From an uncultured archaeon (lineage in GTDB: Archaea; Nanobdellota; Nanobdellia; Pacearchaeales; GW2011-AR1): 64,000 nucleotides of DNA. Of the stretch, positions 3,582-27,649 are shown one piece after another; position 1 is the first letter of the stretch; the number at the start of each line of letters is the position of its first letter. The translations under genes and the position numbers were made by a program. The DNA lies in assembly GCA_902386025.1 (NCBI GenBank), contig CABMHR010000001.1, positions 35,741 to 99,740 on the forward strand. Direction: 5' to 3'. The notes under the pieces were generated by a model, which was not told the DNA's origin, made no database searches, and was given only the letters and a program-made list of their open reading frames with translations.

Positions 3582-3998
3582 TTAATTGTATTTGTTTATT
3601 TTGATTATGTAATTATCTTTTGTGTCTTCTGCCTGAACATCAGGATAAGCAGAAGCATCTACATTATTGAAAAAAGAATATGAATAGCTGCTTTTGTCGC
3701 TTAATTTTACCGTCACAACATTCCCATTTATTTTTATTATATTCTCCTTGCTTATTCCGTTTCCTGCAGCAATGGCTATTGCATCTGCCATATTTAGTTT
3801 CATCAGCATTCCCGGCTTTCCTGCATCAATAAGAAGAACTGCATTTTTTGCATATGCCTGTTCCATCATAACTGCTCCGCTTCCCTGCTTGTATAAAAAC
3901 AAAACCAAAATTGCAAGAAAAATTAAATCAAGAACAATAAAAACAATATTATCAATTAAAATTACTCCGTTCTTATCTCTTACAGCCCTCTTTTTCAT
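3582..3998 (-). CDS. prepilin-like protein
   Basis: Basic N-terminus then KNG|VILIDNIVFIVLDLIFLAILVLFL. Its stop is 1 nt from the next gene's start. Confidence 0.5.
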   Translation of the reverse strand: MKKRAVRDKNGVILIDNIVFIVLDLIFLAILVLFLYKQGSGAVMMEQAYAKNAVLLIDAGKPGMLMKLNMADAIAIAAGNGISKENIIKINGNVVTVKLSDKSSYSYSFFNNVDASAYPDVQAEDTKDNYIIKINKYN

Positions 3999-4048
3999 TA
4001 TAAAAATAAAATCCCCAAATTAATAAACCTTATCCAACGCACAGGAAA

Positions 4049-5008
4049 TTATGCTAAAGATTTTATCTGTTCGCATTTTAAATCATTAAGAAGAGTTGGT
4101 GTTGCTTCAACTATTGTTGGAGACAAATAATCGTGTCCAGATGCTCCCTTGACTGTTGTTCCAACAAAATATCCTGCTGTTCCTCCAACACCAATTCCCC
4201 CTAAAATTGCAACTGTTGCAGGGATAGATGCTCCCCCAGTTATAGCTGCTAATGCAATCCCTGTTCCTACTGCTACTCCCCCCGCAATCCAAGTCAAAAC
4301 TCCAACTTCATTAAACATCCCAGTCATAACATAATAATCTTTATTCAGATAGATTTTCCCAAAATTTTTGGAATTGCTTGCTAAAGCTTCTGTAATTGCT
4401 CCTGAACTTTTTACTCCAATCATATAATCCAGATAACTTGTGTCTTTTCCTGGAAGTTTTGTTGCTGAAAGATAATTATAAAACTGATTTTCATCTATTT
4501 CTCCATTTTTGAATTCTTCAATATTCTGAACACTTTTGTCAAAAGAAACCTGCGAGCATATTGAACAATAAAGATGAGCTCCAAAATCTTCTCCAAGATA
4601 ATTTAATTTTCCTTCTCCAAACATCCACCAGCAGTCAGCCATCTGTTCTGCCAAAAATTGATAAACATCTGTTGCAGTTTTCACTTTCTGAATCTGGGCA
4701 TTAGGCATAGTTTTGCAAGTCCCGTCTTTTGTCAAGCATGCATACTGCGTCTTGCAGTTTAAGGGAATTGATTCTTTTGGAACCACTCCAGAACCTCGTG
4801 TAACAACAGAATTATGGCAATTCTGCTGTTCTGTTGTTTTTCCAAGATTTAATCTGAACAGAAAAAATAATATAACTGCAAAACTTACAATTAAAATTAT
4901 TATCAGCACTATCTGTTCTGTTGTTATATCCCCTCTGTGATTCTTTGCAGGAAAAATGCACTTCTTTTTTTTATTGGTTATTTTTCTCATAAAATTATAC
5001 CACTCCAA
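4049..5008 (-). CDS. prepilin-like protein with C-terminal glycine-zipper hydrophobic domain
   Basis: NHRG|DITTEQIVLIIILIVSFAVILFF signal; the likely true start is MRKITNKKKK at 4990. C-terminal segment: GVLTWIAGGVAVGTGIALAAITGGASIPATVAILGGIGVGGTAGYFVG. Confidence 0.55.
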   Translation of the reverse strand: MEWYNFMRKITNKKKKCIFPAKNHRGDITTEQIVLIIILIVSFAVILFFLFRLNLGKTTEQQNCHNSVVTRGSGVVPKESIPLNCKTQYACLTKDGTCKTMPNAQIQKVKTATDVYQFLAEQMADCWWMFGEGKLNYLGEDFGAHLYCSICSQVSFDKSVQNIEEFKNGEIDENQFYNYLSATKLPGKDTSYLDYMIGVKSSGAITEALASNSKNFGKIYLNKDYYVMTGMFNEVGVLTWIAGGVAVGTGIALAAITGGASIPATVAILGGIGVGGTAGYFVGTTVKGASGHDYLSPTIVEATPTLLNDLKCEQIKSLA

Positions 5009-5092
5009 TTTGCTTAAGCAGGAAATACAATCCTGCAGATGCCATTATAAAAAAAGCAATCCAAATTATATATTTTATCAATTCATCAAGAT

Positions 5093-5599
5093 TCATTTTT
5101 TTTCAGCAGGGCTTATTTCAATTCCCCCGTTTACATTTTTTATTAAAATAGAAATTCCTGTTGTTCCAATCTGGATTGTTTCAAAATGCTTGATTGTGTT
5201 TAAAGAATAGCACGAGCCCTTGTCATCGCACTGGTCTATCTGCGCATTTTTGTTGAAAAAATTGGAAATGTCGCTTGTCTTCATGCAAATGCAGACGCAG
5301 TTTGTTTTTAAGCACGAACTTGGTTTTTTGTCTCCCTCTGTAAAGCTAAAAAGATGCCAGAGCTGAGGGTTTGGAATTGTTATTTCTTTTGAACTTAATT
5401 CTACTTCTCCAGAATTAACTTGATTTATTGCAGGCTTGACTAAATTTTCCATGCTTGCTGCTGCCTGTTTCACTCCTTCTTCTCCTGAAAGGGAAAAATA
5501 TATTGAAACAAGAAGAAGAACAAGAAAGCCTATGCAGATTACAGCAACAACAATTTTTATTGTTTCCTCGCCTAATAAAAATCCTTTTTTATTTTTCAT
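5093..5599 (-). CDS. prepilin-like protein
   Basis: MKNKKG|FLLGEETIKIVVAVICIGFLVLLLV. Cys-rich mature domain. The start overlaps the upstream micro-ORF stop (ATGA). Confidence 0.55.
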   Translation of the reverse strand: MKNKKGFLLGEETIKIVVAVICIGFLVLLLVSIYFSLSGEEGVKQAAASMENLVKPAINQVNSGEVELSSKEITIPNPQLWHLFSFTEGDKKPSSCLKTNCVCICMKTSDISNFFNKNAQIDQCDDKGSCYSLNTIKHFETIQIGTTGISILIKNVNGGIEISPAEKK

Positions 5600-5763
5600 T
5601 TTCCCAAAGCCATGAAGATTTTGTTGGGATTTGCTGGAGAAAGCCCGTTAAAAAATTCTATAATCTGAGTTTTGAAGAAAAAATAAAGTCCTGCTACAAC
5701 TGCAACAACCACAAGAATGCCCAAAATTATTTTTATAAGCTGTTCTGTTGTTAATTCCGACAT
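5596..5763 (-). CDS. 55-aa pilin-like micro-protein (not in ORF track)
   Basis: Hand translation: MSELTTEQLIKIILGILVVVAVVAGLYFFFKTQIIEFFNGLSPANPNKIFMALGK. The TTEQ+hydrophobic helix matches the mature N-terminus of ORF 4049..5008. Its stop overlaps the next start. Confidence 0.4.
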   Translation of the reverse strand: MSELTTEQLIKIILGILVVVAVVAGLYFFFKTQIIEFFNGLSPANPNKIFMALGK

Positions 5764-5764
5764 C

Positions 5765-5923
5765 TTATCTCCCTTTGAAAATATTTTTAATTTGGTCTAT
5801 CAAGTCAAATCCTTTTCCCTTCATTACAAAAATGCTTATCATAACTATTGCAAGCAGGGCAAGCCCGATTAACAGCCAAGGAAGATATTCTGTAATCACT
5901 CCTTCTTTTTCTTTTCTCTTCAT
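5765..5923 (-). CDS. 52-aa pilin-like micro-protein (not in ORF track)
   Basis: Hand translation: MKRKEKEG|VITEYLPWLLIGLALLAIVMISIFVMKGKGFDLIDQIKNIFKGR. First gene of the operon, 1 nt from the next start. Confidence 0.4.
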   Translation of the reverse strand: MKRKEKEGVITEYLPWLLIGLALLAIVMISIFVMKGKGFDLIDQIKNIFKGR

Positions 5924-6021
5924 AAAATAAAAATGAGAAAAGAATTAATAAACTTTCCTAAAAATATTTTTTCCCTTTCAGAGATAGAAAGTTATTTAAA
6001 TAATATTAAATAACTTTATTT

Positions 6022-6243
6022 ATGGTATTAAAAACATTTAACATTGACAAACAGGCATATGATTTATTTTCAAAATTTTGCAGGGAAAATGGAATAAGCA
6101 TGAGCAAGCAGATAGAGATTTTCATAAAATGTCAGATTGAAGAAGAGCCAAAAATAAGAAAAGAATACTTGGATAGATTAGACAAGATAAGAAAAGGAAA
6201 TTTTGTAAAAGTAGCAGATTTTAAAAAAAGATATTTAAGTTAA
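6022..6243 (+). CDS. RHH/CopG-like antitoxin
   Basis: 73 aa. The N-terminal beta-strand/helix pattern KTFNIDKQAYDLFSKFCRENGISMSKQIEIFI is typical of ribbon-helix-helix antitoxins. It lies 17 nt upstream of a RelE-like gene. Confidence 0.55.
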   Translation: MVLKTFNIDKQAYDLFSKFCRENGISMSKQIEIFIKCQIEEEPKIRKEYLDRLDKIRKGNFVKVADFKKRYLS

Positions 6244-6260
6244 TTAATTCTTATGAATAA

Positions 6261-6524
6261 ATGTATGGGCTGGAGGTTTCTGATTTAGCAGACAGGAAAT
6301 TCTACAAGATTGCAAGGAAGAATAAAATTCTTTTTGAAGCAATAAGCAAAAAGATTGAAGAGATTAAAACAAATCCTGAACATTTTAAGCCGTTAAGAAG
6401 AGGGATGAAAGGGCAGAGAAGAATTCACTTTGGACATTTTGTATTAACTTTTGAGATTATTTATGAAAGAAATGTAGTAAGAATTCTTGATTTTGATAAT
6501 CATGATAAAATCTATGAAAAATAA
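6261..6524 (+). CDS. RelE/ParE-family type II toxin
   Basis: 87 aa with the pattern KKIEEIKTNPEHFKPLRRGMKGQRRIHFGHFVLTFEI...VVRILDFDNHDKIY, characteristic of RelE/StbE toxins. Confidence 0.7.
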   Translation: MYGLEVSDLADRKFYKIARKNKILFEAISKKIEEIKTNPEHFKPLRRGMKGQRRIHFGHFVLTFEIIYERNVVRILDFDNHDKIYEK

Positions 6525-6533
6525 AGGATTTAA

Positions 6534-8711
6534 TCACGTTAAATTGCCTAATACAATTGAAGTCAAAAGAGACAATGAAGTAATTGCTATGACTGCAGTT
6601 ATGACATAAAGCCCTATTGCTTTCTTCAGGTTAATTCCTGTCTTGTTTGTCTGCTCAAGCTTGTCTTCTCCAGAATCAATGACAGTCAAAGTTCCTGTTA
6701 GTATAAATACGATTTCAATTAAATATATTCCCACAATTATCTGAAGAATATAAGGAGGAATCATTTTTGTCATATCAAATATGGAAAGGATAGTGTTCAG
6801 ATTTCCAAATCCTGAAATAGCAGTGGAATCTCCGCTTAACTTGGCAATATCAAGTTTTGTTAATATGCTTGTTATCATCGCTGCTAATCCAATAACAATT
6901 CCAGAAAGAAGAGGGGCAAGGAAAGTCATATTGCTCTTCATATCAGAAATTATTTCTGCAAGCAAATCTCTCAATCTTTCTGTAATCTTGTTCATATTTT
7001 TCACATATTCTGACAGGCTTATCAAACTCAAGGCAGCAATGTTCAATCCTTTTTTCGCAGATTCAACAAGAATTTTCATGCTTGTTGCAATCAAGCTTGA
7101 AGGATAATAAACCAATACTCCTCTTTTCTTGTCAAATATTGCACTTTCAACACTCATCCCCATCTGCATAATATTATAGCTTACTCTTCTGAAAAAATCC
7201 TCTGTCTTAAGCCCTTTAGTTGATTCTGCAACTTTGCTGAATGCAAGTTCAGGAGGAACACCGTCTCCAATTCTGTTTCCAAGCTGGAACAAAGAATTGT
7301 TAAACTCAACTTCAAGCTGTTTTGTTTTTTCCCTTTCTTTGATTAATTTTTCTGTTTTTCTCTTGAATGCAATTGAAAAGAACAAAGCTGTTCCTAAAGT
7401 AAAAGAAACGCCCATTAATATTGCTCCTATCCCAAATGGCCCGACTGTCCTGTCTCCTATTGCCCTAAAATCAAAGATGGAATTGTCTCCAAGAAATCCC
7501 AACCCTATTTCAGAAAATGTATAATCTGATTTTAATCCCAAAAATCCAGGTATTGGGGTATATTGAAAAATAAGAGGAAGCAAGCCTATTATAAAAAAAG
7601 GAAGGCAGATTAAGAATGCCTTTGCATAAGGTTTCCTGCTTTTGTAAACAGGATATAGCGGATTTCTTTCTAAAAGTTCTGTTTCTCCATACCCCCCAGG
7701 ACGCAGGAACATAACCTTGTCAGTCAAATAAAAAACAAAAAATGGAATTATAATATTAAATAAAATTAAGACATGATACCATTTGATTATATCTCCAACC
7801 ATTGCAGAAGCAAGAGGAAGAAGAGCCAGCCCCAAAGTTGGAAGAACAACCCCAAGCATATAAACATTTGTCAGCGGACTTCTGACTTCGTGCGTAAATT
7901 TCAGCATCTTTTCATAAACGCCGTCAAGAACAACCTGAAGGGCTTTTTCAAGTGTGGAAATTCTTTTTGCATCTTCCGGCTCAAACAAGCTACTTTCAAT
8001 TAAATGAAAAGCTTCAATAAATTCTATTGAATAATCTTTCCAAGTATTGAGATAGTTATCCAAACTTTCTTTTATTGTTGAAAATTTTCCAACCTGGACA
8101 TTATAAAAAATCTTTTTGAAATCCAGAGCAAGAGGATATTGCAGATGTTCCGAAGCAAATGCAATCGCTTTTTCCAAATTTGGAGTGTGCCTCATATAAA
8201 CAACAATGTACAAAATAGCAGGCATCATTTGGGATGATGCTTTTAATCTCCATTTGTTCGCCAGTCTTGCAGGATATCCGTTGATAAAATAAAAGAGAAA
8301 CATTCCTGCAAACATAACAAGAATAAAAAAGAAAAATGGGAAATTTTCAAATCCTCCCTTGAATAAGGCAATTGCAACAGAAATTAACAGTCCTGCAATA
8401 AAGACTCCCATAAAAGAAACAACTCCAAGAGTAATTGGCTGCCACGGCTCCAAATCAAGATGGGCAATTTCTAAAGACTTTCTTATTTTGTCTTCGTCTT
8501 TTTGTGCAACTTTTAATTTAACAACACTCCCAAGACTTCTGCACAATCTTTCAAATCTTGTAAGTTCAGGAGCCATTTCCTGCTTGAATGTAGTGTATGT
8601 CTGGCTGTAATTTGTTTTTTCAGAAACAGAATCAGATTTTATCGTATCTTCAATCTTTGCTGCGTGTTTTTTAAGAATTTCTTCTATGGTTGGCTTTCGA
8701 GTTGGTTCCAT
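6534..8711 (-). CDS. FlaJ/TadC/PilC-like type IV filament platform membrane protein
   Basis: 725-aa polytopic membrane protein with cytoplasmic helical domains. It lies between the pilin genes and the secretion ATPase. The call rests on architecture and context. Confidence 0.6.
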   Translation of the reverse strand: MEPTRKPTIEEILKKHAAKIEDTIKSDSVSEKTNYSQTYTTFKQEMAPELTRFERLCRSLGSVVKLKVAQKDEDKIRKSLEIAHLDLEPWQPITLGVVSFMGVFIAGLLISVAIALFKGGFENFPFFFFILVMFAGMFLFYFINGYPARLANKWRLKASSQMMPAILYIVVYMRHTPNLEKAIAFASEHLQYPLALDFKKIFYNVQVGKFSTIKESLDNYLNTWKDYSIEFIEAFHLIESSLFEPEDAKRISTLEKALQVVLDGVYEKMLKFTHEVRSPLTNVYMLGVVLPTLGLALLPLASAMVGDIIKWYHVLILFNIIIPFFVFYLTDKVMFLRPGGYGETELLERNPLYPVYKSRKPYAKAFLICLPFFIIGLLPLIFQYTPIPGFLGLKSDYTFSEIGLGFLGDNSIFDFRAIGDRTVGPFGIGAILMGVSFTLGTALFFSIAFKRKTEKLIKEREKTKQLEVEFNNSLFQLGNRIGDGVPPELAFSKVAESTKGLKTEDFFRRVSYNIMQMGMSVESAIFDKKRGVLVYYPSSLIATSMKILVESAKKGLNIAALSLISLSEYVKNMNKITERLRDLLAEIISDMKSNMTFLAPLLSGIVIGLAAMITSILTKLDIAKLSGDSTAISGFGNLNTILSIFDMTKMIPPYILQIIVGIYLIEIVFILTGTLTVIDSGEDKLEQTNKTGINLKKAIGLYVITAVIAITSLSLLTSIVLGNLT

Positions 8712-8783
8712 CTTCTCTTTTTTAAGTAAAAAATAAAAGAGAATTTAACTTATAAATATTTGCGATTTTCGTCGGACAAAAAA

Positions 8784-9278
8784 TTATTTCTTTTTCCCCT
8801 TGAGATAAAGGAAAGTGAAAACTAATCCGCAGATAAAGAAGCAGATGCCAATCCAGCGCGAATCATTCTGGCTTAATTCTGTTATGACATTTCCAGTTAA
8901 GCTTGAGGATACAAAAACAAGAGCAGCCAAAAAAGAGGATATTGAAAGCACAGCAGAAAGCCTTTTTCCCAATCCTGTTGGGGAAACATAATTCTCGAAT
9001 CTTTTTCTTGTTGCATTCAATCCCTTGAGATATTTTTTAATATCTTTCATATCTTCATCATTTTCATCCTTGCCCATTCTTTTAGCATAACTCAAGGCAG
9101 AATAATAATCTCTTTCTGCATTCTTAACTGCTTCGCTCCCAGGAACCTTATTCCACATATCTCCTGCGTTCTTATATCCTGAAAAGACACGAGAAAAAGA
9201 AGGAAGTTTTTTCATTAATTCTCTTTGAGCTTCTAATTCATAATCAATTGCCTTCTTCTCTGCAGGATGTTTTATCAT
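8784..9278 (-). CDS. hypothetical membrane-anchored protein, filament-locus accessory
   Basis: Soluble helical N-terminal part plus two C-terminal TM helices. It is wedged between the platform and ATPase genes. No family recognised. Confidence 0.35.
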   Translation of the reverse strand: MIKHPAEKKAIDYELEAQRELMKKLPSFSRVFSGYKNAGDMWNKVPGSEAVKNAERDYYSALSYAKRMGKDENDEDMKDIKKYLKGLNATRKRFENYVSPTGLGKRLSAVLSISSFLAALVFVSSSLTGNVITELSQNDSRWIGICFFICGLVFTFLYLKGKKK

Positions 9279-9313
9279 ATCTAATAAGAATAAATCAGCT
9301 TTAAATATTTTAT

Positions 9314-11602
9314 TTAAAAGAACTTTTTCTTTATTTCCCCATTAAGCCATTTCTGCCAAGCAGGGAAAACTCTTTCTCCGATAGGAAGTCCTACTTCCTG
9401 CCTGATATTATCAGAAATTTCATGGAATGCGTGATTTGAAAGAGTGTTGAATTCTGCTTCAAGAATTTTGTTGTTTCCTGTCTTGTTTGCTGTATTTACT
9501 ATTTCTTGTTTTATGTTTGCTCTTAAAAGAATATTATCATAAATCCCGTCCCAGTTTCCAGCCCATCCCTTTACATTTGATGCAATGTCTTTGAGAACTT
9601 CGCTGTCTCCGTTGATTAAATCATCGCTCGGCTTTAATTCATCTTTTTCTATGTCATAATTAAGCAAATCAACAAATCCTTTTTCTAAGAGAGGGTCATC
9701 TTTCCAGTGTTTTCTTATTTCAGAAAGCTGAACAACTCTTCTCAACGAATGCAGTCCGTCTGGTGTTTTAATTGGATTGCAGACAGCAATTATGTCTGTT
9801 GCCTTAAAGCTTGTTTTCGGAACTTCCAAGTCATTTACAACTCTGTCAAAAACTCCGTATGGACTTGCTCCGTGAATTGTTCCTGCAACAACATTGGCCA
9901 AAGCACCGACTCTCATTGCTTCATAAAGTGCTTTTGCTTCAACGCTTCTCACTTCACCTATTATCAAGCAGGAATCCCCTAATCTTAAGCTGGTTCTTAT
10001 TCCATCGTCAGCAGAAACTTCTGTTGTCGTTCTTAATAAAGCAGAACGGACTTTCATTCTTAACAAGTCATAATCTAATTTCCTTAAAGATTCAACAGGC
10101 AGTTCCAGAGAATCTTCAATTACAATAATTCTGTGCTTGGGAATAATTTCCAGCATCAAGCTTCCAAGCAGGGAAGTTTTTCCAGAGCCTCTTGTTCCTG
10201 CAACTAAAAGCGTTCTTGCTCCGTCAATTAAAAAACTCATCAGTCCTGCAGTAAAAGAATTAAGCATTTTATTCTGCACAAATAACGGCAGAGTCCAAGG
10301 CTCTTCTCTATGCCTTCTTATTGCATATGCCAGCCCGTCGGGAGAAAGAGGATTCTGAATCACTGCAATTCTCGCTCTGATTTTTCCAATTTCCAATTGA
10401 GTGTCTAATATTGGATTTGCTTCATCCAAAGGACGCCCTGAAATCATTCTGAATTTAGCAGCCCACGAATCAATATCTGCTTGGCTTGGAAGAATATTTG
10501 TCAGGCACTCGTCATATTCCTGATGATTCACAAAAATATTTGTCATAGGTATTGGAGAATTCAGAAATATATCCTGCAGATTTTTATCCTGAAGCAAAAC
10601 TTCCACAATTCCAAAACCAATAGTCTGCCTGACTAAAATCGTAGCGAGTTTGTTTAAATCAGGATAATTTATATTTATCCTCTGGGATTGCGCCAAATCC
10701 TGAAGCAAATCTTTTGAAATATTAAAAAAAACCTGCCTGACTCTTTCAACATCTGTAAATTCCTCTGCTTTTGGCTGATGTTCTACTAAAACTCCGCGGG
10801 CAAGATTCAGAAGAACATTATAATCTTCATCAAGGGAATTTTCAGGAGGATTGAGATGATAAATTAATTTGGATTCATTTTTCTGCTTTAGTATTGTCAC
10901 AGTGGAAGTATCATAGTCTTCCCCAATTTCATACTGGTTTATAATTTCAGCCCCTTCAGGCAAATCAGAAATCAGCCTCGTAAAAGTAAAATTGGGAATT
11001 ACATCTGGACTGAATATTTTGTGGTATATTTCTCTGTCTCCCTTTTTATAATTGTCAAGATAAGGCAGAACTTCTCTGATTAGCCTTGTATTTTCCAGCA
11101 GAGCCAGAATTTTCTCCAGGAGATGAGTATAATTATCCTGTTCATTTCTGGAAGAAAGAGAAATTTTTTCAGATAAAATTTTTGACTGAAGAATTATTTT
11201 TTTGAGTTCAAAATATGCAGAAACAGGGTCCTGCCTTAAAAGAAGAAGAAATGAAAAGACTTCATTATATCTTTGGGAAAAGAACTGCCCGTTTGAAGAA
11301 GCAAGCTTGTCCTGCGAAAGAATTTTCTCCTGTTTCATAAAATAAACATAAAGCTGTGCAATTTCCAAAAGCGTAGCAGTTTCCTTGAAGTCATAATTAT
11401 AGTTTTTCTGCTGGCTTAAGATTATTCTTGAAACATTCGGATTTTCTATAAGTGCATCAACAGTTTTTCCCATAACCTCGGCATATTCTGCAATATTCGG
11501 AACAAAAGGAGCGCCAAGATAATTAATGTAAAGAATGTCTTCCCCCCCTTCTCTGCGGACTTCATATGCGTATAATTTATTCTCCTCTTTTTCGTCTGGC
11601 AT
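9314..11602 (-). CDS. type II/IV secretion-family ATPase (FlaI/PilB/VirB11-like) with long N-terminal extension
   Basis: Walker A VAGTRGSGKTSLLGSL, Walker B/Asp box RIIVIEDSLEL, IIGEVRSVEA and His box AGTIHG. Several hundred residues precede the ATPase core. Confidence 0.9.
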   Translation of the reverse strand: MPDEKEENKLYAYEVRREGGEDILYINYLGAPFVPNIAEYAEVMGKTVDALIENPNVSRIILSQQKNYNYDFKETATLLEIAQLYVYFMKQEKILSQDKLASSNGQFFSQRYNEVFSFLLLLRQDPVSAYFELKKIILQSKILSEKISLSSRNEQDNYTHLLEKILALLENTRLIREVLPYLDNYKKGDREIYHKIFSPDVIPNFTFTRLISDLPEGAEIINQYEIGEDYDTSTVTILKQKNESKLIYHLNPPENSLDEDYNVLLNLARGVLVEHQPKAEEFTDVERVRQVFFNISKDLLQDLAQSQRININYPDLNKLATILVRQTIGFGIVEVLLQDKNLQDIFLNSPIPMTNIFVNHQEYDECLTNILPSQADIDSWAAKFRMISGRPLDEANPILDTQLEIGKIRARIAVIQNPLSPDGLAYAIRRHREEPWTLPLFVQNKMLNSFTAGLMSFLIDGARTLLVAGTRGSGKTSLLGSLMLEIIPKHRIIVIEDSLELPVESLRKLDYDLLRMKVRSALLRTTTEVSADDGIRTSLRLGDSCLIIGEVRSVEAKALYEAMRVGALANVVAGTIHGASPYGVFDRVVNDLEVPKTSFKATDIIAVCNPIKTPDGLHSLRRVVQLSEIRKHWKDDPLLEKGFVDLLNYDIEKDELKPSDDLINGDSEVLKDIASNVKGWAGNWDGIYDNILLRANIKQEIVNTANKTGNNKILEAEFNTLSNHAFHEISDNIRQEVGLPIGERVFPAWQKWLNGEIKKKFF

Positions 11603-11748
11603 CTTATATAGTTTTTTCTACCAAGGTAGTCTCTTTTTTTCTAAAAAAGAAACCCCTGTTTAAATTATTTTGTATATTTAGGAAATGAATCAGAGAACTT
11701 TGGATTGTCAAACACAACAAATTTAAACTTGTTTAATGTTAATGTTGC

Positions 11749-12093
11749 ATGGTGATGCAGGAAGATTATGCTGGACAATTATCAGGAGACATTAGCACAA
11801 AAATAAGAAATATAGAAGAGAAGCAGAGAATTTTGAAAGAACAGATTTTATTGATTGGGCAGAATCTTTTGGAAATAAAAGAAAAAACAAATCAGAAAAT
11901 ATTAGAGATTAAAAAAGAGGAAGGGGAAATGAGGCAGGCTGTTGAAAGATTATCCTCTTTCCTTGAAACAGTTTCGGGTGAATTTTCCAAATTTGCAAAG
12001 AAAGAAGATTTGGAAATACTGGCTAAGCAGGCAAAAATGTTTCAGCCGATGGAATTTGTAAGAAAAAAAGATTTAGAATCTTTAAGAAGATAA
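11749..12093 (+). CDS. coiled-coil protein, unknown function
   Basis: 114 aa with heptad-rich Glu/Lys sequence. It is divergent from the ATPase gene. Confidence 0.35.
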   Translation: MVMQEDYAGQLSGDISTKIRNIEEKQRILKEQILLIGQNLLEIKEKTNQKILEIKKEEGEMRQAVERLSSFLETVSGEFSKFAKKEDLEILAKQAKMFQPMEFVRKKDLESLRR

Positions 12094-24605: not shown

Positions 24606-25799
24606 ATGCTGCTGGAAATTCTGATTTCAGTATTTATAGGAATTCTTGCAGGGGCATTTACAGGCTTGATGCCTGGAATTCATATAAACCTTGTAGGAAC
24701 AATTTTAGTCGGATTGTCAGCAACATTATTTTCAGCGATAAATCTGGTTTATCTTGTTATTTTTATTTCTGCAATGGCGATAAGCCACACATTTATAGAT
24801 TTCATTCCTTCAATTTTCCTCGGATGTCCTGATACAGACACACAGCTTTCAATTCTCCCAGGACACGAAATGCTGAAAGAGGGAAAAGGATATGAAGCAG
24901 TAATGCTGACTGCTTATGGTGGGTTAATTGCAGTATTTGTTTTAATAATAATTTCATTCCCATTATCTGCATTTTTCTTTAAGGTATATGAAGCACTTCA
25001 TTCAATAATGTTTTGGATTTTGCTTGCAGTTTCATTAATTTTAATTTTTACAGAGAAGAATAAAATAAAGGCGTTGTTTGTTTTTGCTGCTTCTGGAATT
25101 TTTGGTTTATGTGTGTTAAATTCTAATGTGAAAGAGCCTCTTCTTCCCCTTTTGACAGGGCTTTTCGGAACTTCAATGCTGATTGCAAGCATAAAAAATA
25201 AAATTCAAATTCCAAAACAAGAAATTACAAAACCAGAATGCAGATTGTTCAAGCCTGTTTTAGGTTCCTTGATTGCTTCCCCTTTATGCGGTTTTCTTCC
25301 TGGGCTGGGGAGCGGACAGGCAGCAATCTTGGGGAATGCAGTTTCCAGAACAGACAGAAAAGGATTTCTTGTTTTAGTTGGAGCAACAAATGTTTTGGTT
25401 ATGGGATTGTCTTTTGTTTCCTTGTATGCAATTTCAAAAACAAGAACAGGAGCCGCAGCAGCAATACAGGAAATAATCGGAGCTCTTTCATGGAAAATAC
25501 TGCTGATAATTCTCTTCGCTGTTTTAATCAGCGGGGTAGTTTCCTTCATTCTTGCAAAAATTCTTGCAAAATTTTTCTCAGACAAGATTAACAAAATAAA
25601 TTATGCAAAACTTTCAATTGCAGTTTTAATCCTTCTTGCAGTAATTGTATTTATCTTTTCTGGATTTTTTGGATTGCTAATTCTTGCTGCTTCCACATTT
25701 ACAGGAATATATTGCAATTCTCTCCCTGTAAAAAAGACGCATATGATGGGATGTCTGTTAATTCCTACAATGATTTATTATGCTGGAATGATTTTTTAA
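24606..25799 (+). CDS. TctA/DUF112-family membrane protein
   Basis: About 10 TM helices. The N-terminal GAFTGLMPGIHINLV and later LPGLGSGQAAILG are typical of archaeal TctA-like proteins. Confidence 0.55.
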   Translation: MLLEILISVFIGILAGAFTGLMPGIHINLVGTILVGLSATLFSAINLVYLVIFISAMAISHTFIDFIPSIFLGCPDTDTQLSILPGHEMLKEGKGYEAVMLTAYGGLIAVFVLIIISFPLSAFFFKVYEALHSIMFWILLAVSLILIFTEKNKIKALFVFAASGIFGLCVLNSNVKEPLLPLLTGLFGTSMLIASIKNKIQIPKQEITKPECRLFKPVLGSLIASPLCGFLPGLGSGQAAILGNAVSRTDRKGFLVLVGATNVLVMGLSFVSLYAISKTRTGAAAAIQEIIGALSWKILLIILFAVLISGVVSFILAKILAKFFSDKINKINYAKLSIAVLILLAVIVFIFSGFFGLLILAASTFTGIYCNSLPVKKTHMMGCLLIPTMIYYAGMIF

Positions 25800-26681
25800 T
25801 TAGACAATAATTTTCGGTTCTAAAGTTTGAAAACTACATAAAGAAATATTTTCTTTGAAAACATTTACGGTCAAAACATTATCTACTTTTTTTGTTCCAT
25901 ATTTAATATGATATTTTATACTATTTAATTTACAAAATTTCTCCACTATTTTAGCACAGGTGTCATAAAATTCTTCACTTTTTGGGAAGTTAGTGGAGTT
26001 GCAGTTATAATTCAATTTTCCGAAGATAATATTATCTACGAAAGAGATTTCATTTAATATGTTTAAAAGATTAACAATTCCATTACCTTTTGTAAGATTT
26101 GGTGTTGGATAAGGCTCCATACTAACCCAAGTCTTTAAACCAGCATCATGTAATTTCCTTAACGCTTTTATTCTTCTTAAGTAAGGTGCGCTTCCCGGTT
26201 CAAATTTTTTCTTAAAATCATTGTCTAAAGAAACAAGGGTAATTCCATATTCATTATCTAAGCTATATTTTTTAGAATCAACTAATTCTTTGGGATAAAT
26301 CCCTTTAGTTAATATTGTGCATTTTATCCCATTAGAATTTAATTTGTTTATTATTTTTAGAGTCATATCTGCAATTTCGGGATAAGTATACATGAAGGGG
26401 TCGGTAGTAAAACATAAATGGACAAAGTTTATTTCATTCCTGTATTTAGGAATTTCTTTATCCAAGAGTTCTAAGGCATTTTTAACAAGTTTTGGTTTTA
26501 ACCATTCTTCGTAAGTTTTAACTTTTCCAAACCTTTTCGCCATATTAAAAGCATAACAAGGAAAATTACAACCATGAGCGCAACCTTCAACATGATTGAT
26601 ACAAAAATCAGCATATTCAACCTTACTTTTGTATAAAAGAGAACTACGAGTTATATAAGCAATCTTTCCTCCCTTATCCAT
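25800..26681 (-). CDS. radical-SAM-like (SplB/COG1533-type TIM barrel) protein with C-x3-C-x3-C cluster motif
   Basis: VEGCAHGCNFPCYAF near the N-terminus, one residue longer than the canonical CxxxCxxC. Later blocks FTTDPF and SMEPYP resemble those of DNA-repair-photolyase-like radical SAM proteins. Confidence 0.5.
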   Translation of the reverse strand: MDKGGKIAYITRSSLLYKSKVEYADFCINHVEGCAHGCNFPCYAFNMAKRFGKVKTYEEWLKPKLVKNALELLDKEIPKYRNEINFVHLCFTTDPFMYTYPEIADMTLKIINKLNSNGIKCTILTKGIYPKELVDSKKYSLDNEYGITLVSLDNDFKKKFEPGSAPYLRRIKALRKLHDAGLKTWVSMEPYPTPNLTKGNGIVNLLNILNEISFVDNIIFGKLNYNCNSTNFPKSEEFYDTCAKIVEKFCKLNSIKYHIKYGTKKVDNVLTVNVFKENISLCSFQTLEPKIIV

Positions 26682-26716
26682 AATAGAACAAGATAAAAAG
26701 ATTATATAAATTTACC

Positions 26717-27646
26717 TCAAAATAAAGTATTTTGTCTTTTCTTTATTATATCTAAAGAAATTTCTACCGCTTTATCAGAATGTTTCTCTATTTCGTGGCC
26801 AGCGTTAATAATCGGTTTCATCCAAGGATTCCCAGTTCCAGTTTTATGGGTGATAAAAAGAAGATTATAAGCAAATCCTTTAACAGAATTTATGTGAACG
26901 CTATAAAAAACAGCATCCGACCTCTCCTTTAAAATATTTTTTTTATAAATTTCAAGAATGTCTCTTTCACATTTTGCTTGTTTCCAAGAATCATCTCCAA
27001 AAAAAGTAGTTAATGCTTTATACCCATGCCCAGTTACCTCATTTGTACAAACCGCTCTCCAAGATGCACGACTCATAAACGTAAGAAGGATATCGCTTCG
27101 TATATTAAGAAGTTTTTTCATAGATTGCCAAGAGAAATCTAAATCAAAAGGATCGACAAAGAAAAAGTTATAAGGAAATTTATCTTTTTTTATCTCATCT
27201 AAAATTTTATCTAAGCAAGAATTGCAATCTAAATTAAATAAAGAAAAATTTTTAAAATTTAGTTTATTTATCCTTTTTTCAAGGGTTTTAAAAGATTCTT
27301 TTTCTTTTTCACAAAAAAAGAATTTTGTAAATTTAGTATTATGGTTTAGTAAAGCAATAAAAGGTGAACCAATTAAGATATCTTCATATTTAGTTTTTAT
27401 CTTATTTAAACCAGAACCAGCAAAAACGTCTATATAATTTTTTTTGGAATAATTATTATTTGCTACAATAGCACAAACATCCAATAAATAATTTAGAAAA
27501 ACTAATTTTAATGGAGTCCATGGATGAAATTCATTACAGATATAAGGATCAGTCTCTTTTATTTTGTTTATTTCTTCTTTGAAAGAAGAATTTGTTTCTT
27601 CAATTTTCTTTAATTGTTTTTTAAGCCAAGTTAAATCCGTTGTCAT
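26717..27646 (-). CDS. TcmP-like (three-Cys-motif partner) methyltransferase-fold protein
   Basis: HPWTPLKLVFLNYL, motif I-like YIDVFAGSGLN and motif IV-like FFFVDPFD. The start is 3 nt after the PolD DP2 stop. Confidence 0.45.
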   Translation of the reverse strand: MTTDLTWLKKQLKKIEETNSSFKEEINKIKETDPYICNEFHPWTPLKLVFLNYLLDVCAIVANNNYSKKNYIDVFAGSGLNKIKTKYEDILIGSPFIALLNHNTKFTKFFFCEKEKESFKTLEKRINKLNFKNFSLFNLDCNSCLDKILDEIKKDKFPYNFFFVDPFDLDFSWQSMKKLLNIRSDILLTFMSRASWRAVCTNEVTGHGYKALTTFFGDDSWKQAKCERDILEIYKKNILKERSDAVFYSVHINSVKGFAYNLLFITHKTGTGNPWMKPIINAGHEIEKHSDKAVEISLDIIKKRQNTLF

Positions 27647-27649
27647 TTT

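Follow-up and report, generated by a model that had tools for sequence, protein, structure and literature searches.

Pairs made of a TcmP (three-Cys-motif partner) protein and a partner carrying three cysteines are widespread in phages, prophages, and defense islands, and they have been flagged as defense candidates; two of them, PDC-M41 and PDC-M30, stand in PADLOC as candidate systems only. One family of partners, DUF5131, shares a single megacluster of radical S-adenosylmethionine (radical-SAM) enzymes at RadicalSAM.org with spore photoproduct lyase (SPL) and an MJ0683-like group. Elsewhere, the Thermus phages Cumys and phiMa carry a module of a radical-SAM gene and DUF483, with fusions, for which the authors inferred a role in DNA modification (PMC11437467). 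Here, we take up one more pair, genes A and B, which directly follows the genes of the replicative polymerase PolD in 64,000 nucleotides (nt) of DNA from an uncultured archaeon of the Pacearchaeales (contig CABMHR010000001.1, positions 35,741 to 99,740; we refer to this whole stretch as the window). What is this pair, and what is it doing beside a replicative polymerase?

The original prediction for this locus was that physical coupling to polD points to a replication-linked system for DNA modification, repair, or self/non-self marking. We hold a different view with considerable confidence: A and B together form a mobile, restriction-associated TcmP/radical-SAM module, and its position next to polD is incidental.

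Two proteins that travel together

Gene A belongs, as was predicted, to the TcmP family. It scores 101.5 bits against TIGR04474 (curated NCBIfam cutoff 53) over profile positions 1–249 of 263, and it matches the PADLOC models PDC-M41A (4.7e-19) and PDC-M30A (2.7e-7). A TcmP protein should also have a neighbor with an N-terminal three-cysteine motif, and gene B, 35 nt downstream, has C34, C38, and C42. An AlphaFold2 model of the A protein (predicted local distance difference test, pLDDT, 89.7; predicted TM-score, pTM, 0.90) has the class-I SAM-methyltransferase fold. Among its conserved residues, D73, F75, and G77 are invariant, E113 is nearly so, and D165 and P166 are invariant, giving a motif I of the form D-x-F-x-G-S-G, the acidic residue of motif II, and an invariant D-P in motif IV. 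The motifs quoted in the prediction (WTPLKLVFLNYLL, DVFAGSG, FFFVDPF, and GCAHGCNFPCYAF) are all in the sequence.

Gene B passes the radical-SAM profile PF04055 (48.2 bits; gathering threshold 29.5) and falls just under the threshold of PF07505/DUF5131 (22.8 bits against 28.9, over profile positions 1–113 of 243 only), so that of the two Pfam families proposed as a check, the first was passed and the second was not. Its AlphaFold2 model (pLDDT 84.5) finds, at E ≤ 0.001, 37 folds in the PDB, of which 35 are radical-SAM enzymes with their partial TIM barrel. The best is SPL (E = 1.2e-7, TM-score 0.60), which leads the other radical-SAM enzymes by a clear margin, and at the level of fold the SplB-like assignment therefore stands. 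Sequence profiles are more reserved: NCBIfam gives weak matches to the Rv2578c (1.8e-14) and PA0069 (4.5e-11) families, far under their cutoffs (53.5 against 430 bits), and a weak one (44–50 bits for B-type enzymes) to mobile pair protein B, TIGR04470; the SPL models TIGR04070 and TIGR03886 gave no match. Searches of A, B, and the family profiles against PDB sequences returned chance matches only.

The cysteine loop of gene B is its most distinctive feature. As predicted, it reads C34-x3-C38-x3-C42, not the canonical C-x3-C-x2-C, and the form GC[AS]H[GD]C.[FY]PCY is invariant in the 48 close relatives that we aligned and in every DPANN partner examined. An exhaustive profile search recovered cluster representatives of 3,113 related groups, and 194 of these representatives passed E ≤ 1e-30. 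The N-terminus is preserved in 106 of the top 150; the loop reads C-x3-C-x3-C in 84 of the 106 and has the canonical spacing in the other 22. Because the canonical form occurs within the same family, we read the B-type loop as a proline insertion of one residue in a radical-SAM family that is otherwise ordinary. The list of motif variants at RadicalSAM.org has first-spacer variants only (C-x6-C-x2-C for DUF5131 among them) and does not include a second spacer of three residues. The “CX3CX3C” given for NifB in PMC9692996 is apparently a slip; the same passage states the NifB motif as CX3CX2C.

The pairing itself is far from private to this locus, as it would have been had the prediction been wrong on this point. 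All close relatives of gene A with downstream sequence have A followed by B on the same strand, with gaps of −14 to +59 nt, and the adjacency is found in 20 DPANN loci, including the window (the pair-bearing loci are L001–L004, L008–L011, L013–L016, L018–L022, L177, and L179). On IMG/VR viral contigs, a TcmP-model match lies directly upstream, on the same strand, of a B-type gene or its remnant in 46 of 59 cases, and both genes are present in 44. In some organisms, the two are one polypeptide: P0179 (634 residues) and P0182 (592 residues) have a TcmP-like N-terminal half (172.5 and 111.9 bits, respectively, against TIGR04474) fused to a B-type C-terminal half, and three more representatives, truncated, have the same architecture. 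These fusions argue that A and B very probably work as one complex.

Within the pair, the evolution of the two members is decoupled. Over 190 pairs of loci, A proteins average 46.9% identity (range 23–77) and B proteins 68.4% (60–87, which is also the span of B across DPANN archaea), with a weak correlation between the two (Spearman 0.29). The sharpest case is L179, a locus with the same arrangement beside polD. Its B protein is 86% identical to that of the window, at the head of a list that continues with Cdc6 (83%), TyrRS (74%), DP1 and DP2 (70% each), and TctA (67%), whereas the protein at the A position is 24% identical over 192 residues. The DNA tells the same story, with identity of 62–70% at the 3′ end of DP2, 35–47% in gene A, a rise at the spacer, and 73–92% in gene B. 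The A-position protein of L179 is nonetheless a TcmP (104 bits against TIGR04474; long viral forms reach 112–168 bits), and it defines a second DPANN clade of 34 proteins, whose contigs appear to match the contigs of same-clade B-family matches. At least two TcmP clades, ~24% identical, thus precede near-identical B genes. From the contrast in L179, we take B to be the conserved core of the module and A to be a swappable partner.

Swapping seems to work in the other direction too. The TcmPs of L005 and L008 are 71.5% identical, and one is partnered with a canonical DUF5131 protein, the other with a B-type enzyme, which makes the two kinds of partner interchangeable. A further type is found in a Methanomethylicota locus (L041:5372-7639), where a 403-residue TcmP-like gene is followed after 33 nt by a 340-residue radical-SAM gene with the canonical C-x3-C-x2-C and a weak match (55.7 bits) to the SPL model TIGR04070; this enzyme is a third type of TcmP partner from the same megacluster. 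In P0180 (1002 residues), a B-type domain at ~745–996 is fused to a 745-residue N-terminal region that has no NCBIfam match and has methyltransferase-like motifs, such as DVINLDYQG; the region may be a third kind of partner. Finally, L026–L037 (mostly Bathyarchaeia, with Thermococcus and Desulfurococcales) carry TcmP-like genes 26–30% identical to gene A; on their downstream side, the one searched, there is no three-cysteine-motif radical-SAM gene within 250 nt, and these TcmPs may be orphans or differently arranged.

By tblastn against GenBank phages, gene A had no match and gene B met only distant radical-SAM genes, save in two unannotated gut “Bacteriophage sp.” scaffolds, and PLSDB plasmids gave no match to gene B at E ≤ 1e-10.

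The site beside polD

The local arrangement was read correctly in the original prediction. The genes cdc6, DP1, DP2, A, and B form a codirectional string on one strand, with Pfam matches for the replication genes, and direct reading of the sequence reproduces the open reading frame positions and both spacings, 3 nt between DP2 and A and 35 nt between A and B (Table 1). The stop codons of gene B and of the convergent TctA gene are 0 nt apart. What the string means is another matter.

Could the pair be an extension of an oriC-cdc6-polD operon that modifies or repairs nascent DNA together with PolD? The junction of DP2 with the gene at the A position is tight in three genomes (3 nt apart in the window, a 1-nt overlap in L179, and a 17-nt overlap in JGI 3300075153), gene A in the window lacks its own TATA-like box, and the cassette has persisted at the polD site despite replacement of the A allele, all of which would suit such a role. 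Yet the partnership dissolves when one looks farther afield. The DP2, DP1, Cdc6, and TctA of the window have no match in 45 other fetched TcmP-bearing loci, among them ~20 DPANN loci with the pair, and the same pair occurs on bacterial proviruses, which are without PolD. Conversely, neither A nor B is present in any of 72 metagenomic loci chosen for their DP2 (41–91% identical over the C-terminal 399 residues). In these relatives, the order Cdc6-DP1-DP2, convergent TctA, TyrRS is conserved (43 of the 72 have TctA convergent to DP2 on its downstream side), and relatives that stand nearer to the window than L179 does have the slot between DP2 and TctA empty or filled with unrelated genes.

That slot, surveyed in L046–L108, is a variable insertion hotspot in the lineage of the window. 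In nine relatives, it is an empty site, DP2 and TctA being separated by only 6–36 nt, and in 11 loci, it holds a family of ~134-residue genes without a Pfam match. Elsewhere, it holds unrelated genes, such as those for a Schlafen AlbA_2/HATPase_c_4 protein, a GATase/PRTase-CE protein, an alcohol dehydrogenase with a DeoC aldolase, or CARDB surface proteins. The A-B cassette is, moreover, compositionally foreign, as the suggested check of local composition revealed: gene A has 26.8% GC (guanine plus cytosine; z = −2.6, with z = −2.5 for GC3), the lowest of the 59 genes of the window, and gene B has 28.6% (z = −1.9), whereas the polD genes are typical. We could find no clear scar of its arrival. 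The cassette is not flanked by any convincing repeats, direct or inverted (the candidates look like AT-rich chance matches), there is no tRNA gene within 14 kb of it, and the genes scanned around it in the window with Pfam include no integrase.

We dropped the notion that the adjacency is unique to the window, because the closest relatives of B (86% identical) occupy the same slot in two related genomes; the linkage to polD is therefore recurrent within this lineage. Synteny with polD, which the prediction proposed to survey, accordingly fails in the 72 DP2 relatives and holds in two related genomes. L179 and the window do not come from sister genomes, and each has closer DP2 relatives without the cassette, which makes the cassette a polymorphic occupant of the hotspot. 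On the 392-kb contig of JGI 3300075153, the order is Cdc6-DP1-HD-DP2-[335 aa]-B-TctA-TyrRS; the HD-domain gene (190 residues) lies between DP1 and DP2, and the 335-residue gene at the A position has no Pfam match and belongs to neither of the recovered TcmP clades.

With polD absent from other pair-bearing loci, the junction variable, and the cassette foreign, the step from linkage to a replication-linked role does not hold; the comparative data have already largely refuted it, and we regard it as very improbable indeed. The usual companions of the pair, on proviruses and in defense islands, are restriction-modification genes, and the adjacency of the pair to polD accordingly looks like a lineage-specific insertion rather than evidence about replication. 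The lesson for annotation is a general one: a gene that abuts the polD operon need not belong to the replication apparatus.

How, then, would the cassette be expressed? Within the spacer, an element TTTATATA that resembles a B recognition element (BRE) with a TATA box ends 21 nt upstream of the start codon of gene B. The window, L002, and L010 have almost the same spacer sequence, GGTAAATTTATATAAT, despite A proteins that share only 44–58% identity, and L179 has TTTTATATAAT at the equivalent position. The spacer thus holds a putative promoter for gene B, which would give a leaderless or near-leaderless transcript. No TATA-like box lies ~26 nt upstream of gene A in the window, L002, or L010, where A abuts an upstream gene, whereas the stand-alone loci L001, L003, L004, L005, and L009 do have one for gene A. 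Read-through from polD is the probable source of gene A transcripts in the window. A scan for sigma-70 promoters and intrinsic terminators gave counts equal to the shuffled expectation, and it is uninformative for an archaeon.

At the other end of the string, the intergenic stretch upstream of cdc6 looks like an archaeal origin, as was predicted, because of its low GC content, a tandem ATACT array, and inverted repeats that resemble origin recognition boxes (ORBs) and contain TTCAAGTGGAAAT. Just past it is an HTH_36/DnaD_N-like protein; a protein of similar size, with faint matches to two of those Pfam families, is at L002:14364-15059, ~1.8 kb from Cdc6. In L002, a TcmP/B cassette with a Type IIG enzyme and resolvases lies ~7 kb from Cdc6, which may place this cassette, too, close to an origin.

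Table 1. Features of the window at and around the A-B cassette
Feature	Position	Strand	Remarks
Open reading frame	6534-8711	minus	725 aa; no Pfam match
T2SSE-domain protein	9314-11602	minus	762 aa; type II/IV secretion ATPase domain; a 164-aa open reading frame lies between it and the 725-aa one
TctA-family membrane protein	24606-25799	plus	PF01970 at 4.1e-52; convergent; downstream core flank of the insertion site
DP2-TctA junction, window equivalent	25800-27649		Interval surveyed in relatives
Gene B	25800-26681	minus	293 aa; SPL/COG1533/DUF5131-type radical-SAM enzyme; conserved core
A-B spacer	26682-26716	minus	35 nt, from gene A stop codon to gene B start codon; putative internal promoter for gene B
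BRE/TATA-like element	26703-26710		In the A-B spacer
Gene A	26717-27646	minus	309 aa; TcmP family, class-I SAM-methyltransferase fold; variable, swappable partner
DP2-gene A junction	27647-27649	minus	3 nt, read directly; upstream boundary of the cassette
DP2 stop codon	27650-27652		Followed by 3 nt, then the start codon of gene A
DP2 (PolD large subunit)	27650-31111	minus	Pfam PolC_DP2_N, PolC_DP2_central, PolC_DP2_cat; upstream core flank of the insertion site
DP1	31108-32703	minus	Pfam-confirmed
Cdc6	32761-33996	minus	Pfam-confirmed
Origin-like intergenic stretch	33997-34876		22% GC; upstream of cdc6
ORB-like repeat	34095-34117		Inverted relative to the next one
ATACT tandem array	34266-34360		~95 nt; beyond cdc6
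ORB-like repeat	34404-34426		
HTH_36/DnaD_N-like protein	35674-36366	plus	~230 aa

The company it keeps and what it might do

If the pair does not belong with polD, with what does it belong? By plain tally, ~11 of ~19 distinct DPANN loci have restriction or defense genes within ~6 kb. L002 and L010 have Type IIG enzymes (MmeI/Eco57I-type) coupled directly upstream of the pair, and such enzymes are nearby in L003, L009, and L011. L018 has a complete Type I system near the pair, L020 has Type III res and mod with an SNF2/SWIM helicase, and L001 has GmrSD and HEPN genes; L021 adds a Schlafen-like helicase and L011 a WYL-domain protein. (At L022:11209-13824, an eRF1 gene is broken by an intein with LAGLIDADG and helix-turn-helix domains.) A tight same-strand operon recurs on the viral contigs, [long TcmP]-[TcmP]-[B]-[Type III Mod]-[Type III Res], and Type III Mod follows the pair directly in 16 of the 59 viral loci. 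Its carriers in IMG/VR are L123, L125, L132, L138, L144–L147, L152, L155, and L161 (locus coordinates ~3950–12080); gaps are tiny, the long TcmP-like protein is of the PDC-M30A type (~375–400 residues), and the second, short TcmP is only sometimes present. L121 has McrBC directly upstream of the pair, and other viral loci have a T5orf172-helicase with DUF3644/PDC-S19, MvaI/BcnI or HindIII endonucleases, Xre/M78 regulators, and integrases, resolvases, and terminase. The self/non-self marking that the prediction listed beside its other options fits such neighborhoods much better than a replication role does.

The best explanation overall is probably, on balance, a mobile restriction-associated module for nucleic-acid modification, with A as the exchangeable targeting partner and B as the core, and the complex most likely acts on DNA. 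In this scheme, A would bind SAM and pick the target, possibly methylating it; B would then apply 5′-deoxyadenosyl-radical chemistry to that nucleotide (most likely one in DNA), yielding a complex base modification that serves in self-marking or in evading restriction. The adjacency to polD would be the use of an insertion hotspot, perhaps with the convenience of coexpression and with no function in replication. That the module specifically makes a DNA modification is possible, a little short of an even chance in our judgment. A bolder version must be called doubtful. In it, the pair would be a new radical-SAM-dependent DNA-marking system that works beside Type I, IIG, III, and IV restriction enzymes in proviruses and DPANN archaea, its exchangeable, methyltransferase-like A directing a conserved, SPL-like B to put a complex base modification in place or to take it away.

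Several observations weigh against this modification scheme or parts of it. By the same plain tally, ~6 of ~19 DPANN loci have housekeeping neighbors only. The literature that we searched holds no functional study or phenotype for TcmP/partner pairs, PDC-M41 and PDC-M30 included, just as the prediction had said that such pairs have no established function. The tight DP2-A junctions described above allow a selective benefit from coexpression with polD, and the evidence for a promoter in the spacer is weak, the DNA there being AT-rich. Motif IV differs in the second TcmP clade: its invariant D-P is mostly followed by threonine (DPT) in place of an aromatic residue, which makes classical amino-methyltransferase catalysis by A doubtful. 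On the side of B, a profile alignment (hhalign) to SPL covers residues 158–216 only (E = 0.0018, probability 15%), and the catalytic cysteine and tyrosines of SPL could not be aligned in gene B. The closest solved folds to gene A, finally, are RNA methyltransferases, so that its target could be RNA.

This last point has an explanation of its own behind it, namely that the pair modifies tRNA or rRNA and is merely carried by mobile elements. The top PDB matches of gene A are Trm1 (tRNA m2,2G; 7e-7) and RlmJ (rRNA m6A; 1.3e-5), and there is a weak Pfam match to the RsmD-like family Cons_hypoth95. The resemblance is generic, however, with moderate TM-scores of ~0.45 (and a BFVD fold search with gene A returned generic methyltransferases only), while the Type III mod-res, Type IIG, and McrBC genes of its operons point to DNA, on which the nearest characterized relative of B also acts. 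We consider RNA modification quite unlikely.

The likeness of B to SPL invites another thought: B might be a repair lyase that reverses a specific lesion or cross-link, with A as an accessory. SPL is, after all, its best structural match, the two have the motif FEPG...R...AG in common, and relatives of B are annotated “DNA repair photolyase” in several sources. That motif is the only one that aligns by sequence, so we claim resemblance to SPL and not membership, and B is far below the cutoffs of the SPL and COG1533 families. (C90, considered as the counterpart of the conserved catalytic cysteine of SPL, was dropped because the profile comparison aligned this one motif only.) A repair enzyme would hardly be expected to have a patchy, mobile distribution that includes proviruses, with restriction-modification and not repair genes as neighbors, and such terms do not easily account for a TcmP partner that is both obligatory and hypervariable. 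A repair function is thus very improbable.

Might the pair instead be a weapon that stands alone, an antiviral effector in which A is a sensor or a self-protecting methylase and B does the damage, for example, as a radical-SAM “restriction” enzyme, by radical attack on unmarked invader DNA, or by making a toxic nucleotide? Both proteins match the PADLOC candidates, the pair is found in defense islands and proviruses, a variable A with a conserved B is the usual pattern of sensor and effector, and the fusions recall Type IIG enzymes, in which a single protein both restricts and modifies. Nevertheless, B is too conserved to match a sequence specificity, the pair has no nuclease or other known effector domain, and it is usually embedded among complete restriction systems rather than replacing them. 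Nor is B close to viperin, whose fold match is ~1e-3 against 1e-7 for SPL, and the searched literature reports no validated phenotype. We think such an effector unlikely, and we return to nucleic-acid modification as the reading that we prefer.

What would follow? Should the pair prove to make or erase a DNA modification, restriction-modification biology would gain new enzymology, and there would be a new epigenetic mark to look for in gut proviruses and DPANN archaea. If it marks DNA, then the polD-adjacent locus would be a polymorphic site at which alleles of A are swapped, analogous to the shuffling of hsdS. Our comparison adds some experimental handles: a distinct partner subfamily, fusions that argue for an A-B complex, an architecture of core and swappable parts, and compact operons with Type III mod-res, which on bacterial proviruses look like a ready-made experimental system.

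Comparison with known systems

The rSAM module of Cumys and phiMa is one parallel. It too is a phage or prophage radical-SAM gene with an accessory protein and with fusions that support a functional coupling, but the accessory is DUF483 and not TcmP, and the parallel is drawn at the level of the module's layout. Another is the radical SAM mobile pair (TIGR04471 as A and TIGR04470 as B), also a mobile two-gene unit and of the same radical-SAM branch. That pair consists of two radical-SAM enzymes, whereas here a methyltransferase-fold protein is joined to one, and all scores are far under the cutoffs of 410 and 355 bits. The canonical DUF5131 protein of L005:8984-9730 weakly resembles mobile pair protein A, TIGR04471 (98.7 bits). 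Set beside the faint likeness of B-type enzymes to mobile pair protein B, this hints that the two types of TcmP partner are themselves paired in another mobile system.

The SplB/COG1533 enzymes (PA0069 and Rv2578c) provide the best fold match for B, together with FEPG...R...AG, weak profile matches, and a shared megacluster. Gene B differs from them in the spacing of its cluster loop, in its sub-cutoff scores, and in its obligatory TcmP partner, and its distribution is mobile and linked to restriction, unlike that of a sporulation or repair gene.

The TcmP/DUF5131 pairs, PDC-M41 and PDC-M30, come closest. They have a gene A of the TcmP model, the same order of A and then a three-cysteine radical-SAM partner, and the same mobile, defense-island context, and related TcmPs take either partner. 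The difference is in that partner. Canonical DUF5131 proteins have C-x6-C-x2-C (as in L005 and L045), whereas gene B has C-x3-C-x3-C, is ~45 residues longer, and passes PF04055. Gene B matches PDC-M41B (1.4e-5) and PDC-M30B (3.2e-5) only weakly, over ~85 N-terminal residues; because a true DUF5131 protein scores 1.9e-108 on PDC-M41B and B-type proteins score ~1e-5, the B-type variant falls outside the existing PADLOC models. Judged on its sequence, the pair in the window is thus best read as a variant of the PADLOC candidates PDC-M41 and PDC-M30.

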